Counted from the first letter of the stretch, positions 3,057-30,006 are shown. The stretch: DNA of 42,830 bases from Chloroflexia bacterium (GCA_013697005.1 JACCXM010000033.1:1-42830); one strand, 5' to 3'. The notes: generated from the sequence alone by a model not told the origin. Numbers and translations: made by a program.

Positions 3057-3141
3057 GCCCAGGTGGCGGAACTGGCAGACGCGCTAGCTTGAGGGGCTAG
3101 TGCCCGATTAGGGCGTGAAGGTTCAAATCCTTTCCTGGGCA
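3057..3141 (+). tRNA. tRNA-Leu(GAG)
   Basis: Acceptor stem GCCCAGG/CCTGGGC, anticodon arm CTAGC-TTGAGGG-GCTAG, long variable arm, T-loop GTTCAAATC. CCA is not fully encoded. Confidence 0.95.
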
Positions 3142-3159
3142 CCGCTTCCCGCCAGCCAT

Positions 3160-3235
3160 GGGCGATTAGCTCAGCTGGAAGAGCGCCACGTTTACACCGT
3201 GGATGTCAGAGGTTCGAGCCCTCTATCGCCCACCA
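3160..3235 (+). tRNA. tRNA-Val(TAC)
   Basis: Acceptor stem GGGCGAT/ATCGCCC, anticodon arm CCACG-TTTACAC-CGTGG, T-loop GTTCGAGCC, encoded CCA. Confidence 0.96.
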
Positions 3236-3253
3236 GCCGGGCCGGCACGTATC

Positions 3254-3326
3254 GCCAAGGTAGCTCAGTTGGTAGAGCTCACGACTGAAAATCGTGCGGT
3301 CGGCAGTTCGAGTCTGCCCCTTGGCA
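3254..3326 (+). tRNA. tRNA-Phe(GAA)
   Basis: Acceptor stem GCCAAGG/CCTTGGC, anticodon arm CACGA-CTGAAAA-TCGTG, T-loop GTTCGAGTC. Confidence 0.96.
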
Positions 3327-3346
3327 CCCCTCCCACACCCCGCATA

Positions 3347-4231
3347 TCACGCTGATCCCTCGACCACCGGTAACTCGGGCCGCTCCCCCCATTCATTCCA
3401 GGAACCGTCGTAATTCGCCCAAGACCCATGACCGATACGATCGAGCGCGAACAGGATTGCGGTCGCTGTTACGCCGCCATTGCAATAGGTGATGACAGGC
3501 ATGCCAGACTTCACTCCGCCAGCAGCGAGGACGTGCTGTAACTCCTCATCCTTCTTCCAGGTGCCGTCGTCGGCGAAGAGCGATTTCGCCCAGATATTCA
3601 CCGCCGAAGGCACATGCCCTCCCCGCGCCCCCCGCCGCACCGCCCCGGAATACTGGCCAGGATCGCGAGCATCGACGATCAGTGCATCACCCGCACGTAC
3701 TTTCGCCAGTAACCCATCGCTATCGACTCGCAAATTGCCGTGCTCCCGTGGCGTGAATTGACGTCGCTCAGGCTCCGAAACCGCTTGCGTGAGCGGGAGC
3801 CCGAGCGCCTTCCAGCGATTGAATCCTCCATCGAGAACTGCCGCGCGATCGTGTCCATAGTATTTCAGCGCCCACCACAACCGGGTCGCGAAATGACCTC
3901 CCGTGTGATCGACGATCACGACGTCGGTCGCGTCGCCGACCCCACGCTCGCTCATGGCGGTAGAAAATAGGTCAGATTTCGCCAACTGAACCTTGACCGC
4001 GCAGTCCTGGTCAGTGATGTCCAGGGTCCAGTCGACATACGTGGACCCCGGAATATGTTCGGCCAGGTATTCCTCGCCTGCCGCCACATATTCCGCACGC
4101 TGTTCGCCGTTGCCAAGATCTTGCGTGTTCACATACCCACGGATGTCGACCACCTGCACATCTGGATCATCCAGATGCGTCACTAACCACTCCGGGCCGA
4201 CAAGCGTTCCTGGCAACGAAGTCGGAGACAT
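3347..4231 (-). CDS. Tandem-domain rhodanese/3-mercaptopyruvate sulfurtransferase (SseA-like)
   Basis: Motifs HIPGS, RLWWALKYYG, LDGG, DAR...YSG, GHVPSA, active loop YCNGGVTA and YDGSWNEW. The true start is ATG 4231 after GGAG. The longer ORF call (4603) runs antisense through two tRNAs. Confidence 0.92.
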   Translation of the reverse strand: MSPTSLPGTLVGPEWLVTHLDDPDVQVVDIRGYVNTQDLGNGEQRAEYVAAGEEYLAEHIPGSTYVDWTLDITDQDCAVKVQLAKSDLFSTAMSERGVGDATDVVIVDHTGGHFATRLWWALKYYGHDRAAVLDGGFNRWKALGLPLTQAVSEPERRQFTPREHGNLRVDSDGLLAKVRAGDALIVDARDPGQYSGAVRRGARGGHVPSAVNIWAKSLFADDGTWKKDEELQHVLAAGGVKSGMPVITYCNGGVTATAILFALDRIGHGSWANYDGSWNEWGERPELPVVEGSA

Positions 4232-4250
4232 CTGGCACTCCTGCAACTCC

Positions 4251-4279
4251 TTGACGAGGATTCTGAGCCTCACTATCAT
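4251..4279 (+). promoter_or_regulatory. Sigma70-type promoter of tRNA-Gly
   Basis: TTGACG (4251-4256), 17-nt spacer, TATCAT (4274-4279). Confidence 0.65.
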
Positions 4280-4296
4280 ACTGCGACGGAAGCGAC

Positions 4297-4371
4297 GCGG
4301 AAGTGGCTCAGTGGTAGAGCATCTCCTTGCCAAGGAGAAGGTCGCGGGTTCGAATCCCGTCTTCCGCTCCA
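4297..4371 (+). tRNA. tRNA-Gly(GCC)
   Basis: Acceptor stem GCGGAAG/CTTCCGC, anticodon arm TCTCC-TTGCCAA-GGAGA, T-loop GTTCGAATC, encoded CCA. Confidence 0.96.
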
Positions 4372-4376
4372 TCGTC

Positions 4377-4401
4377 ACCCGGGCCTCGCCCGGGTCTTTT
4401 T
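4377..4401 (+). terminator. Intrinsic terminator after tRNA-Gly
   Basis: Hairpin ACCCGGGC-CTC-GCCCGGGT followed by CTTTTT. Confidence 0.75.
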
Positions 4402-4453
4402 GTGCGCGGCGATGGACGGGCGATGTATGCTCTGCCAACGTCTCTCGATCGGC

Positions 4454-4541
4454 GCGGGCGTGGCGGAATGGCAGACGCCGCGGTCTTAAAAACCGCTGAG
4501 GGGCAACCCTCGTGCGGGTTCGAATCCCGCCGTCCGCACCA
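4454..4541 (+). tRNA. tRNA-Leu(TAA)
   Basis: Acceptor stem GCGGGCG/CGTCCGC, anticodon arm GCGGT-CTTAAAA-ACCGC, variable arm GAGGG-GCAA-CCCTC, T-loop GTTCGAATC, encoded CCA. Confidence 0.95.
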
Positions 4542-4605: not shown

Positions 4606-4896
4606 ATGGCGATGGATATCACCAAAGGATCCACCCGAGTCTACATCGACCCCAAGCGCTGCATCGCCAACGCCAAATGTACGACTGCCGCTCCCGGCGT
4701 CTACGTCCTCGATGAAGAGACTGGCGTTGCCGTCATCGAGAACCCGGATGACGCCACCATCGATCAGCTCTTCGCCGGCGCACGCGCATGTCCAACCCAG
4801 GCCATCATCATCGAGCAGTTTGGCCGGCGACTGTTTCCCACTATCCTCACCCCCATGTTTGGCGCAGGCAAGAATAGCGATGAGAGCGATTCATGA
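4606..4896 (+). CDS. Single-cluster ferredoxin, probably [3Fe-4S]
   Basis: RVYIDPKRCIANAKC...AGARACPTQAI gives a CxxNxxC...CP motif. Start is ATG 4606 or 4612. The ORF-track start at 4327 lies inside tRNA-Gly. Confidence 0.85.
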   Translation: MAMDITKGSTRVYIDPKRCIANAKCTTAAPGVYVLDEETGVAVIENPDDATIDQLFAGARACPTQAIIIEQFGRRLFPTILTPMFGAGKNSDESDS

Positions 4897-6233
4897 CCGG
4901 GCGCGCGATATCGTCTCGACATGCCGTGGCGGTCGTGGTGGCGCTGACAGTGTGTCTGTCCCTTCTTCGTCTCACGTTCTTGAACATCTCGGCCCAGCAA
5001 GCCACCCCATCCGCATCTCCGGCATCAGATGACGTAGCCGGTCAGTTACCCCCAGCGTGGTTGGAGTTCGGTCCCGGCGGACTGCTAATCGCCAGAGTCA
5101 TCGTCGATGGTGCTTGCCCTCCACTGACCCTCGAAGGTCTCGACCTCGCGATGACTCGGCGCACAACACCGACTGCAGCCTTCCCCGTCATTGCGTGCGA
5201 AGCAACCATTCCTTTCGGTACCGACACGGCCACGATCGCCGACCAGACACTTCCGCTTCCCTCCGGTTCCCTGCAGCGGATCGCCGTGATCGGCGATACC
5301 GGTTGCCGGTTGAACGACTGGGAAAAACGATATCAAAGCTGCAATGACCCCCAGCAATGGCCCTTTGCGCAAGTAGCAGCGTCGGTCGCGGCCTGGCAGC
5401 CGGATCTAATTGTTCACGTTGGTGATTACCTCTACCGCGAGAGCCCCTGTCCGGCACTGGGATTCGATTGCCAAGGAAGTCCATTCGGCGACAACTGGGC
5501 GACCTGGAATGCCGACTTCTTCGCCCCGGCCTCGTCGCTCCTCGCTGCTGCCCCCTGGGTGTTCATACGCGGCAATCATGAAACGTGCGAGCGCAGCCCT
5601 GAAGGCTGGTTCGCCTATCTCGACACCCGTGCCTATCAATCGTCCTGTCAACAATTCACACAACCATACGTGGCGCCATTGAACGGTGTTTCGTTGGCAG
5701 TCATCGACTCCGCTGAAGCCGGTGATACGAAAGTCACACCGGACGAGCAAACGCAATATGCCCAGCAGTTCGCGGTGCTCGGGGCGATGGCGCCCACTGG
5801 CTCGTGGCTGGTGACGCACCGGCCAGTCTGGGGCATTCTGGAAGGCAAAACTGACGAGTTCGAAGTGGAAAATGCCAGTTACCAGGCCGCCACTGATGGC
5901 TCGCTCGAGGGCGATTACGCCCTCATCATTTCAGGACATATTCACGCCGCTGAGTCGATTGCGTTCGACGAAGATTCGGGCAAACAGCCGCAAATCATTT
6001 CTGGCAACGCTGGCACCGCCCTCGATGGACTTCCCACCGCGAGCCCGGCCGCCGGTGTGCTGAACGATTCCACTGTCGCGCAGGCCGAAACGCTCTCGGA
6101 ATTTGGCTTTCTCACACTTGAATCCGACGGCGAGAACTGGCACGCCACCCAGCGCGGCGCCAGCGGCGAGCCACTGCTCGAGTGCTTCCTCGACGTGCCT
6201 GAGATGGTCTGCGCTGCGGCTGACGCTGGATAG
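4893..6233 (+). CDS. Exported calcineurin-like metallophosphoesterase
   Basis: N-terminal hydrophobic signal/anchor, followed by motifs GDTG, HVGDY, RGNHE, THRP and SGHIH. The start overlaps the ferredoxin stop (ATGA). Confidence 0.85.
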   Translation: MTGRAISSRHAVAVVVALTVCLSLLRLTFLNISAQQATPSASPASDDVAGQLPPAWLEFGPGGLLIARVIVDGACPPLTLEGLDLAMTRRTTPTAAFPVIACEATIPFGTDTATIADQTLPLPSGSLQRIAVIGDTGCRLNDWEKRYQSCNDPQQWPFAQVAASVAAWQPDLIVHVGDYLYRESPCPALGFDCQGSPFGDNWATWNADFFAPASSLLAAAPWVFIRGNHETCERSPEGWFAYLDTRAYQSSCQQFTQPYVAPLNGVSLAVIDSAEAGDTKVTPDEQTQYAQQFAVLGAMAPTGSWLVTHRPVWGILEGKTDEFEVENASYQAATDGSLEGDYALIISGHIHAAESIAFDEDSGKQPQIISGNAGTALDGLPTASPAAGVLNDSTVAQAETLSEFGFLTLESDGENWHATQRGASGEPLLECFLDVPEMVCAAADAG

Positions 6234-6358
6234 GAACCCCGACCTTCAAGCATTCCAACTCGCCATAATTGTCAGTTTTTACGTAGCCTAAGCTACAAAT
6301 TGAGCCACGCAACCACGCCAATATCTACGAAGGTGGCACTAAAACCCGTCCCCAAAGG

Positions 6359-6743
6359 GTCTTATTAAGGAGAGGGGATGAACACGGACGCGGTCGGACA
6401 CCGTCGACACCACCGCGCCACGCATTCCTGCCCCGGCCCAACGCCCTGGTCCGGGAGCCCGCCTCGGTCAGCAGTGGCCACGGGAGGTACGGCCGTATCT
6501 CCTTCCGGTTGCTGCGCGCACCGACGCGGTCCCGCTCCTGAGTCGACCCGTCGTGTTGCTCATGGCTGACGTATTCCGCCACCGTGCTGGGTCGGATCAT
6601 TTCCGGGCGCGCGCTCCCCGTCGTGGGGGGTCCGCTCCTCTTCCCGGCCTGCTCCAGCAGGTAGCAGCCCAGGGCGTTGGGCGCCGGGGGGTTCCGGCGG
6701 TCCCGGCTCGGTGCGGTGACCACCTCTCCTCAACGCATCGTCT
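6359..6743 (-). mobile_element. Putative non-autonomous IS110/IS1111-type element (no transposase) carrying a structured ncRNA
   Basis: GTCT direct repeats at 6359-6362 and 6740-6743. Sub-terminal inverted repeats at 6365-6377 and 6721-6733 (core AGGAGAGG/CCTCTCCT), 2 and 6 nt inside the repeats. Perfect 14-bp internal long-range stem 6436-6449/6669-6682 plus several hairpins. No credible ORF. Confidence 0.55.
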
Positions 6744-6796
6744 GGCACGTCGCTGGATGGGAGAGCTGCGCCCGACTCCCGCTTGACACCGGAGTG

Positions 6797-6824
6797 CTCT
6801 CAGGGAAAGGGGTTGGGGTGAGGG
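6797..6824 (-). repeat. Degenerate BoxC/CIR-like intergenic repeat (CCCTCACCCCAACCCCTTTCCCTGAGAG)
   Basis: The minus strand matches the pyrimidine-rich CCCTCACCCYAACCC(C)TCTCCC tail of BoxC-like repeats, but the palindromic half is eroded. Confidence 0.45.
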
Positions 6825-6949
6825 TTTCTCAGACTGCGGCGATCGCCCTCCGCGCCCGCGTGCCGAGATTGGCACTACATGAGCGTGGTCCCCATGTGCC
6901 CGGATTACCGTGACAGGGGATTGCGAGGAATCTTTCAGTTCCTCGACGC

Positions 6950-6981
6950 AAAAAGAGAGGGCGGCCCCGGGGCCGCCCTCT
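6950..6981 (-). terminator. Intrinsic terminator of groESL
   Basis: Minus strand reads AGAGGGCGGCC-CCGG-GGCCGCCCTCT followed by CTTTTT, about 30 nt after the groEL stop. Confidence 0.88.

Positions 6982-7012: not shown

Positions 7013-8644
<1,632 letters not shown>

Positions 8645-29930: not shown

Positions 29931-30006
<76 letters not shown>

Follow-up and report, generated by a model that had tools for sequence, protein, structure and literature searches.

The locus and its repeated unit

The analysed window is a 42,830-nt stretch of DNA, contig C114 of genome assembly G000 (4.05 Mb in 479 contigs, 98.46% complete). Related records and proteins are labelled Chloroflexia, Chloroflexota or Thermomicrobiales. 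In the window, a metallophosphoesterase gene (4893–6233) is followed by the unit described here and then by groEL (7013–8641, minus strand). The parts of the unit are listed below, with the fraction of base pairs changed on both sides given for each helix of the RNAalifold consensus.

6303–6800, plus strand: whole unit, in the window an RNA-only form
6303–6361, plus strand: conserved promoter-like block, with TGGCACT at 6334–6340 (-35-like), a 17-nt spacer and GGTC at 6358–6361 (-10-like)
6366–6782, plus strand: recently copied segment, common to other G000 copies at 97–98% identity (C41, and fragments on C20 and C212; blastn)
6368–6539, plus strand: 5′ domain of the predicted RNA, helices 1, 2, 3 and 5
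6368–6372 with 6535–6539, plus strand: helix 1 (both-side changes in 3/5 pairs)
6374–6377 with 6425–6428, plus strand: helix 2 (1/4 pairs)
6389–6397 with 6410–6417, plus strand: helix 3 (3/7 pairs)
6430–6458, plus strand: hairpin A (helix 4), with the invariant loop ACGCCC at 6441–6446 (7/11 pairs; 93% of cells pair)
6463–6467 with 6521–6525, plus strand: helix 5 (3/5 pairs)
6471–6515, plus strand: long variable hairpin, one extended hairpin in 12 of 13 single-sequence folds, with differing stem sequences
6587–6711, plus strand: 3′ domain of the predicted RNA, helices 6–8 and 10, hairpins 11 and 12
6587–6606 with 6694–6711, plus strand: closing helices 6–8 (4/8, 2/3 and 3/4 pairs)
6640–6646 with 6685–6691, plus strand: helix 10 (1/7 pairs)
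6647–6662, plus strand: hairpin 11 (3/6 pairs)
6667–6682, plus strand: hairpin 12 (core B), with the nearly invariant CCAGGGCGTTGGGC (1/6 pairs)
6714–6800, plus strand: 3′ tail, kept only inside the G000 subfamily, with a right repeat (6721–6733) and a second GTCT (6740)

A sequence-only reading of this DNA had taken 6359–6743 for a transposase-less IS110/IS1111-like element. Its view of the region as a discrete, multi-copy, non-coding unit that encodes a large structured RNA is supported, and its expectation of further copies in the genome was confirmed by near-identical ones, such as that on C41 (97.0% identity over 433 nt, window 6350–6782; blastn). Profile searches of G000 revealed the unit at 8 places, six of them full copies (C114, which is the window, C41, C254, C364, C293 and C339) and two of them fragments where the contigs end (C20 and C212). 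In two congeners the unit was recovered with R1, a covariance model built on its 3′ domain that scores 98.3 bits in the window: G008 has 9 copies and G006 has 1, which brings the total to 18 units. By blastn, the unit was present in 3 of 41 genomes (G000 and 40 relatives), namely G000, G006 and G008, and the covariance model of the 3′ domain detected it in 2 of 61 family genomes (G000 and G006), among which 32 genera are sampled. Metagenome contigs yielded four genuine matches, all near-identical to G000's own loci and adding no diversity, and a phage collection had no blastn match to the unit. A pattern scan of viral contigs gave 10 matches, which we regard as chance because none fitted the full unit profile. 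The same kind of scan on genome contigs, with a pattern too loose for GC-rich genomes, gave at least 119 stretches; among the matches listed, two (L068 and L180) fitted the profile, and these were not counted as new because their scores were identical to those of copies L018 and L020. At the gathering thresholds of Rfam 15 only tRNAs passed in the whole window, and with E up to 10 the region 6250–6950 matched only msiK (14.7 bits against a threshold of 33) and HgcE (11.9 against 50); no Rfam family matches the unit. As judged from sequence, the unit represents a repeated, lineage-restricted and previously undescribed family of predicted structured RNAs.

The same metallophosphoesterase and groEL genes are adjacent in five relatives (G006, G013, G015, G008 and G001), where the unit is absent, in agreement with the empty sites anticipated by the earlier reading. 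The spacers between the two genes are about 35–620 nt long in these relatives; four of the five contain little beyond the groEL terminator hairpin, and the 620-nt spacer of G013 consists of other sequence. Because these five orthologous spacers lack the unit, we interpret it as an addition in the lineage of the window. The tally of adjacent genes also took in G011 (flagged unpublished), of which this synteny argument is independent. Contigs assembled from public runs break at 6366 and 6782, and no empty-site allele, that is, a joint across the unit, was found in the contigs of four DNA runs.

The unit is non-coding. Two open reading frames are present, of 132 aa on the minus strand and 63 aa on the plus strand, and neither matched Pfam with E up to 10; every frame is interrupted in at least one of the 13 aligned copies. 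Pairwise comparison of the aligned copies showed that 100 of 861 gap runs are divisible by three, and the variable columns have no three-base period (96/98/105). An ATG behind a strong AAGGAG at 6378 occurs only in the near-identical subfamily of the window. The earlier statement that there is no credible ORF therefore stands, as does that of a GC-rich region (0.70–0.73 in 6400–6800 versus 0.52–0.63 in the flanks).

Predicted fold and strand of the RNA

Alignment of 13 copies, which are 49–77% identical apart from recent duplicates, gave a consensus fold of 68 pairs in 12 helices (RNAalifold). In this fold, 90.7% of cells pair, compared with 82.1% in shuffles (none of 500 as high) and 41–49% when the partners are slid, and 32 pairs are changed on both sides, compared with 18.5 in shuffles (0 of 500) and 10–17 in slid controls; the 13 rows come from three genomes, and their kinship inflates the shuffle statistics. 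The comparison points to a predicted structured RNA of about 350–400 nt whose fold is kept by compensatory changes among diverged copies. Minimum-free-energy folding of 6318–6790 as a single sequence was not better than that of shuffles (z of -0.94 on the plus and -1.15 on the minus strand). The single exception to the extended form of the variable hairpin at 6471–6515 is the thirteenth copy, which has a deletion there. Two invariant loops, ACGCCC and GGCG, are complementary, and a loop–loop contact between them is possible.

The minus-strand orientation proposed earlier was not upheld. Consensus folding gave -70.96 kcal/mol and 68 pairs on the plus strand versus -53.3 kcal/mol and 44 pairs on the minus strand, and the plus-strand structure contains 102 G-U cells versus 21 A-C cells. 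Since the plus strand folds better and G-U outnumber A-C cells, we assign the predicted RNA to the plus strand, and the promoter-like block and the gene located downstream in some copies point likewise. Invariant G-U pairs also occur within the covarying helices.

All of the repeats and pairings that had been described in the window are present, and they differ in how far they extend to the rest of the family. GTCT occurs at 6359–6362 and 6740–6743 and nowhere else in 6300–6800; as a conserved core it does not hold up, for the left one corresponds to the -10-like element of the putative promoter and the right one is found only in the G000 subfamily. The inverted repeats TTAAGGAGAGGGG (6365–6377) and CACCTCTCCTCAA (6721–6733) do pair at 11 of 13 positions in the window, but the terminal repeat is not conserved: across 13 members it pairs in 46–54% of cells, which is the range of slid controls. 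A conserved closing helix between the 5′ and 3′ ends was rejected copy by copy, because the window's own copy is the sole one of 13 whose duplex outperforms 95% of shuffled tails. An end repeat of at least 11/13 arose in 4 of 1000 dinucleotide shuffles of 6359–6743, a figure that flatters the repeat because the edges were picked around it. The left inverted repeat is better described as the first stretch of the predicted transcript, which forms the covarying helix 1 with 6535–6539. A lesson for the reading of sequences follows: what looks like a purine-rich "inverted repeat" bordering an element may turn out to be a promoter together with the beginning of a transcript.

The 14-bp stem formed by GCCCAACGCCCTGG (6436–6449) and CCAGGGCGTTGGGC (6669–6682) is likewise perfect in the window, and none of 1000 dinucleotide-shuffled versions of 6359–6743 contained a perfect inverted repeat of that length or longer (maximum 13), but across the family it shows no compensatory change. 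It pairs in 83% of cells, and each arm belongs to a local covarying hairpin; in the C293 copy, a double change keeps the local core B hairpin and would break the long-range stem. The nested pairings CCGGGAG (6451)/TTCCCGG (6641) and GTCAGC (6467)/GCTGAC (6565) were found as described. So were the hairpins at 6648–6661 and 6483–6502, both of which are conserved, the former as helix 11 and the latter as the tip of the variable hairpin.

The promoter-like block and the terS-position gene

About 75 nt upstream of the predicted RNA are conserved in nearly all copies, and we infer that this left edge is a conserved bipartite promoter of the ECF-sigma type, TGTCnnA-N17-CGTC. The pattern TGTCnnA-N17-(C/T/G)GTC, with one mismatch allowed and the spacing fixed at 17 nt, fits all 17 blocks, one of which has the exact TGTCACA, and 9 of the 17 open with the palindromic GTACGTACGT. 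A scan with the sigma-70 consensus found no promoter at the block of the window. The window copy may be weakly expressed or silent, because it has G for T in the -35-like part (TGGCACT) and GGTC for CGTC. When G000 was searched with a profile of the 17 blocks, six places were recovered at E < 1e-10, five of them RNA units and the sixth a terS-like gene on C24, and there was one further weak match (E 0.019). In four RNA-less loci (G000:C24, G008:C16, and one each in G015 and G006), a small Zn-ribbon gene directly follows the same block, with a 5′UTR of about 35 nt.

According to the available text of one source, the signature of ECF41 promoters is TGTCACA-n16-CGTC (PMC3426412). The block resembles it, and differs in its spacer of 17 rather than 16 nt and, in most copies, in the -35 part. 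The activators RinA and Ltr, as far as the accessible accounts describe them, act on late-operon promoters just upstream of terS (PMC3152322, PMC3753634); in both cases the first packaging gene would be preceded directly by a conserved promoter of its own. Unlike these promoters and those of ECF41 type, the putative promoter of the unit has been multiplied together with an RNA gene.

The small gene belongs to a family present in 20 of the 41 genomes, a tally that includes G021 (flagged unpublished), which alignment A3 leaves out. At the four RNA-less loci with the block, its members encode proteins of 150–160 aa with an N-terminal Zn-ribbon. Next to the small gene lies a terL-like gene in G000:C24 and in G026:C20 (phrog_2, 1.2e-5 and 2.9e-12, respectively), and in G010:C25 the small gene comes first in a module that also encodes a major head protein (2.5e-70), a portal protein (1.6e-22) and a tail protein. 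Family members at these loci occupy the place of TerS, the gene before terL at the head of the packaging module, and the small protein is termed terS by position only. Similarity searches gave it no other identity. It had no match in Pfam; a single-protein scan of PHROGs returned only phrog_4295 (internal virion protein, E 0.21) and no TerS PHROG, and its alignment matched only phrog_144 (HNH endonuclease, 2 of 21 members). Among PDB sequences it matched only designed proteins and, weakly, one natural protein (5fmn, E 0.2). A fold search of BFVD gave nothing at E ≤ 0.001 (model pLDDT 80, pTM 0.42), and in the Atlas a Terminase_2 cluster appeared only at 0.75, below lead level. A search of 5.8 billion proteins recovered 155 relatives, all "hypothetical", and the phage collection had no tblastn match.

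In 3 of the 18 units (G000:C293, G000:C339 and G008:C3), the RNA is followed after about 100–170 nt by an ORF of 143–146 aa, a Zn-ribbon-less paralogue of the small gene, for which the RNA would form a leader of about 440 nt; the remaining 15 units, including that of the window, are RNA-only. None of the three RNA-linked paralogues is followed by a terL-like gene, and one is followed by a PHP/DNA_pol3_alpha gene. When the flanks of all units were compared by tblastx, no common neighbour emerged except the small terS-like gene.

On one alternative view, the RNA does no more than act in cis as the 5′ leader of the Zn-ribbon-less gene, in the control of translation or in antitermination, and the RNA-only copies are dead remnants left when the gene was deleted. 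In favour of this, the three RNA-plus-gene copies stand at or near the base of the copy tree, in which copies mostly cluster by genome. The right edges agree as well: in the RNA-only copies of G008 and G006, an RBS-like AGGGGG-N7-ATG aligned to the start of the small gene is followed by about 10–25 nt more of the unit, and no terminator-like site was found by scanning between RNA and gene or at the end of the window copy. In G000 the right edges lie at about 6782–6800, where homology past the 3′ domain stops at 6782 (versus C41) and at 6800 (versus C212) by blastn. However, remnants should decay, yet RNA-only copies as little as 49–66% alike keep about 90% of cells paired, and it is these copies that supply most of the compensatory changes. 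They have also been duplicated recently at least three times (C114/C41, 97–98%; L015/L017; L219/L220, 96.3%), and they stop at nearly one point, which independent deletions would not produce. We consider a leader-only role unlikely. HK022 put and the lambda late leader are cis-acting antiterminator leaders of 70–200 nt that precede a whole late operon; the unit resembles them in that a phage late transcript would open with a structured RNA, and differs in that modules with terL lack the RNA and no gene follows it in most copies. Because intact-looking packaging modules carry the promoter-like block without the RNA, these modules would not need it.

A further alternative is that the features act as DNA, as a cos/pac-type packaging signal or a recombination site next to terS, with hairpins in single-stranded DNA. 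Packaging signals are usually located at terS or a short way upstream of it, the palindrome opens about half of the blocks, the 14-bp inverted repeat of the window is beyond chance, and the C212 fragment resembles an inversion between its arms. The large excess of G-U over A-C cells, the invariant G-U pairs within covarying helices and the better folding of the plus strand argue instead for RNA; 12 helices over about 350 nt go far beyond the known needs of a terminase site, and terL-bearing modules lack the RNA part. Taken together, a DNA-level role appears very improbable.

Origin of the copies and possible role of the RNA

The edges of near-identical copies differ among pairs. Besides C114/C41, near-identical pairs are L015/L017 and L219/L220 (96.3% over 483 nt), and their left edges vary, lying at 6350, at 6364–6366, or within the block in L219. 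The upstream part of the block differs far more between C114 and C41 than the RNA does. The copies on C20 and C254 have no block and start 3–5 nt past the -10-like element, at 6364–6366 in C20. A DDE_Tnp_1 gene lies at the block-less edge of the C254 copy. The C212 fragment, as noted, looks like an inversion between its arms. Inspection of the unit edges showed no target duplication. A REP-like core was found within 120 nt of 8 of the 18 units versus 1.1% of random intervals of G000, a background that is neither intergenic nor drawn from G008. A MITE was rejected as a candidate, since terminal inverted repeats are not conserved and inspection showed no direct repeats of a target site at the edges.

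In a broader sense, the unit could be a non-autonomous mobile element, MITE-like, rolling-circle or one-ended, or copied through RNA, with a fold that serves mobilisation by an enzyme encoded elsewhere. This would account for the patchy spread (units in 3 of the 41 genomes searched by blastn and in 2 of the 61 searched with the covariance model), for loci that differ per genome while orthologous sites are empty, for near-identical pairs with sharp edges and for contigs that start or stop inside the unit; two promoter-less copies begin near the predicted 5′ end of the RNA, and the association with REP-like cores points the same way. On the other hand, terminal inverted repeats are not conserved, target duplications are not visible at the edges, the flanks have no common gene family except the small terS-like gene, and copies that bear the promoter-like block cannot be copies of the transcript. 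The variable left edges fit gene conversion between paralogues as well as transposition. We regard a mobile element as the whole explanation as distinctly unlikely; as to how the copies arose, the facts fit both gene conversion or duplication of paralogous RNA genes and another kind of mobilisation.

The specific affiliation to IS110/IS1111 fared less well. On that reading, the unit is an internally deleted element and its RNA an orphan bridge or seek RNA usable in trans, an idea that was reasonable given the precedent of ssr9, an IS110-linked small RNA gene with orphan copies in Pseudomonas putida (PMC12288879, as described in the accessible part of that source). The same available text has P. 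putida IS110-family elements inserting into REP sequences, and the units are often near REP-like repeats. The unit thus resembles bridge and seek RNAs and orphan ssr9 as a multi-copy structured ncRNA gene, some copies of which have no adjacent enzyme gene and lie near REP-like repeats. DEDD recombinases are encoded in two of the genomes with units (5 matches in G008 and 4 in G006). However, PF01548 and PF02371 have no match in G000, which nevertheless contains copies 97–98% identical (6 of 14 control genomes do match; the assembly is 98.46% complete, although assemblies can miss IS copies), and the nhmmer profile of the unit, with E up to 10, matched none of eight IS110 loci taken from G008 and G006 (about 1.5 kb on each side). 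No full-length element with the same ends around a DEDD gene was found, and the supposed relic DEDD codons lie in a minus-strand ORF that has no Pfam match. The supposed ends also dissolve, the left one into the -10-like element and first transcribed bases of a putative promoter common to a protein gene, the right one into a repeat restricted to a subfamily. Since the edges are not those of an IS, they mark out no donor or target flanks that internal guide loops might match. Compared with the bridge and seek RNAs in the accounts available, the unit has no link to a recombinase and no common ends, its RNA is larger and lies on the strand opposite to that proposed, its promoter-like block is shared with a phage-type gene, and no Rfam family matches it. 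The IS621 bridge RNA is about 177 nt, approximately half the size of the RNA predicted here. The defining features of an IS110 element fail, and the idea is largely refuted; we give it hardly any credence.

The reading that we tentatively favour, at somewhat less than even confidence, is that 6303–6800 on the plus strand is an RNA-only copy of a unit of promoter and structured RNA that is co-regulated with a phage-type packaging gene. The unit would consist of an ECF-sigma-type promoter, which elsewhere would drive the Zn-ribbon/helical gene at the terS position, and a structured RNA of about 350–400 nt that would start a few bases past the -10-like element. In its fullest form, promoter and RNA would be followed by the Zn-ribbon-less paralogue of the small gene; most copies, including that of the window, would have lost everything past the first bases of this gene and kept the fold. 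Because most copies have lost the gene yet kept the fold, we read the RNA itself as the selected product. A sigma factor or activator that switches on the packaging gene would also fire the units, and the RNA would act as RNA in the late or packaging phase, on a terminase-side protein or as a decoy or signal. What this reading infers is the promoter role of the block, the start point of the transcript, the production of the RNA and any function of it. A mobile element is also compatible with the sharp-edged, near-identical pairs and with the contig breaks inside the unit.

A more speculative version, which we think improbable, is that the units form a chromosomal sensor array, on the side of the host or of a satellite, wired to a phage late or packaging promoter. 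If so, a late sigma factor or activator supplied by an infecting or induced phage would fire 8–10 dispersed copies at once and flood the cell with folded RNA, which at three loci would come with a Zn-ribbon-less TerS-like protein. The RNA might then interfere with, redirect or report DNA packaging, as an RNA counterpart of the packaging interference by satellites or as a self-made signal of the cabRNA kind. The nearest functional analogies to the unit are the activator-dependent promoters before terS, described above, and cabRNA. In the available account, cabRNA is a structured RNA of about 400 nt from the terS–terL coding sequence of staphylococcal phages that binds a CBASS cyclase (PMC10686824). 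The unit is similar in size, in its predicted structure, in its connection with the terminase-gene region and in that hairpins matter over coding content; it differs from cabRNA, as described there, in being non-coding, in lying upstream of the terS-position gene with its own predicted promoter and in occurring mostly as solo chromosomal copies. The likeness is one of description, and no sequence relation is claimed. Our literature search for structured RNAs upstream of terS found only the cabRNA work, and nothing fitting was found for such RNAs in Chloroflexi. GOLLD and ROOL, large ncRNAs associated with prophages (10.1101/2024.12.08.627333), are alike, so far as the accessible text describes them, in being large, ornate, covariation-supported RNAs tied to phage-derived DNA; the unit is shorter, is present in three species only, is multiplied within genomes and has no Rfam match.

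The RNA family described here would be unusual in three respects. It has its own conserved, predicted non-sigma-70 promoter; this predicted promoter is common to the first gene of a phage packaging module; and the cassette of promoter and RNA has been multiplied to 8–10 copies per genome with the fold kept. Few large RNAs are known from bacteria with a fold maintained by compensatory change, and each new class of them has tended to bring new biology to light. To our knowledge, the phage biology of Chloroflexota and Thermomicrobiales is almost unexplored. If the RNA is made, the control of DNA packaging would be tied to an RNA in these bacteria.

Possibly rearranged and promoter-less copies of the RNA

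Three partial or altered copies of the RNA unit (promoter-like block plus structured RNA) were located in the window's own genome (G000):

G000:C212:1-205, fragment of the RNA unit at the start of the contig (loci L004/L005/L014)
G000:C20:30936-31015, RNA copy without the promoter block
G000:C254:4701-5108, RNA copy without the promoter block

The 5' end of C212 consisted of the reverse complement of the equivalent of window positions 6450-6522, and this segment was connected via the 14-nt inverted repeat to the equivalent of 6669-6800. Either the sequence between the two 14-nt arms was inverted, or the junction is an artefact of fold-back or assembly. The C20 and C254 copies both start 3-5 nt past the position of the -10-like element, near the point where the RNA is predicted to begin, and a DDE_Tnp_1 transposase gene adjoins the left (start) edge of the C254 copy.

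Sequences in and around the window copy

The 3' tail of the RNA unit shows a small tandem-repeat polymorphism: a 7-nt sequence, CTCCCGC, was duplicated after window position 6775 in L198, L200 and one contig of run X3, which are other versions of the window locus and the C41 locus. Two further types of feature were recorded in the window:

6795-6832, 38-nt REP-like repeat (core GGGGTGAGGG)
3057-4538 and 29931-30003, six tRNA genes in total

The REP-like repeat gave 72 matches across 59 contigs of G000 (blastn-short), and several RNA units in the relative G008 were directly bordered by similar repeats. Five of the six tRNA genes form a cluster 1.8-3.3 kb upstream of the RNA unit; no tie between the window tRNA genes and the unit was seen.

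Genes beside the small gene and in packaging modules

Neighbours of members of the small-gene family, some of which occupy the terS position of phage packaging modules, included:

G000:C339:1453-3924 (L044), polymerase gene (PHP + DNA_pol3_alpha)
G008:C16 (L195, 9977-13294; L208), terS-position gene and frameshifted terL-like gene with an IS110 DEDD fragment between them

The polymerase gene lies 3' of a unit of RNA plus small gene and overlaps its end. The IS110 DEDD fragment was interrupted by two stop codons, and the G008:C16 locus looks like a decaying packaging module. In six loci from several relatives (L025, L030, L031, L034, L036 and L043), a short ORF separated the terS-position gene from the terL-like gene; a conserved hydrophobic motif (…AGS/AxxxDVxLRL…) stood at its end, and its predicted product would be a small, membrane-like protein. 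Such a protein between the terS position and terL is unusual.
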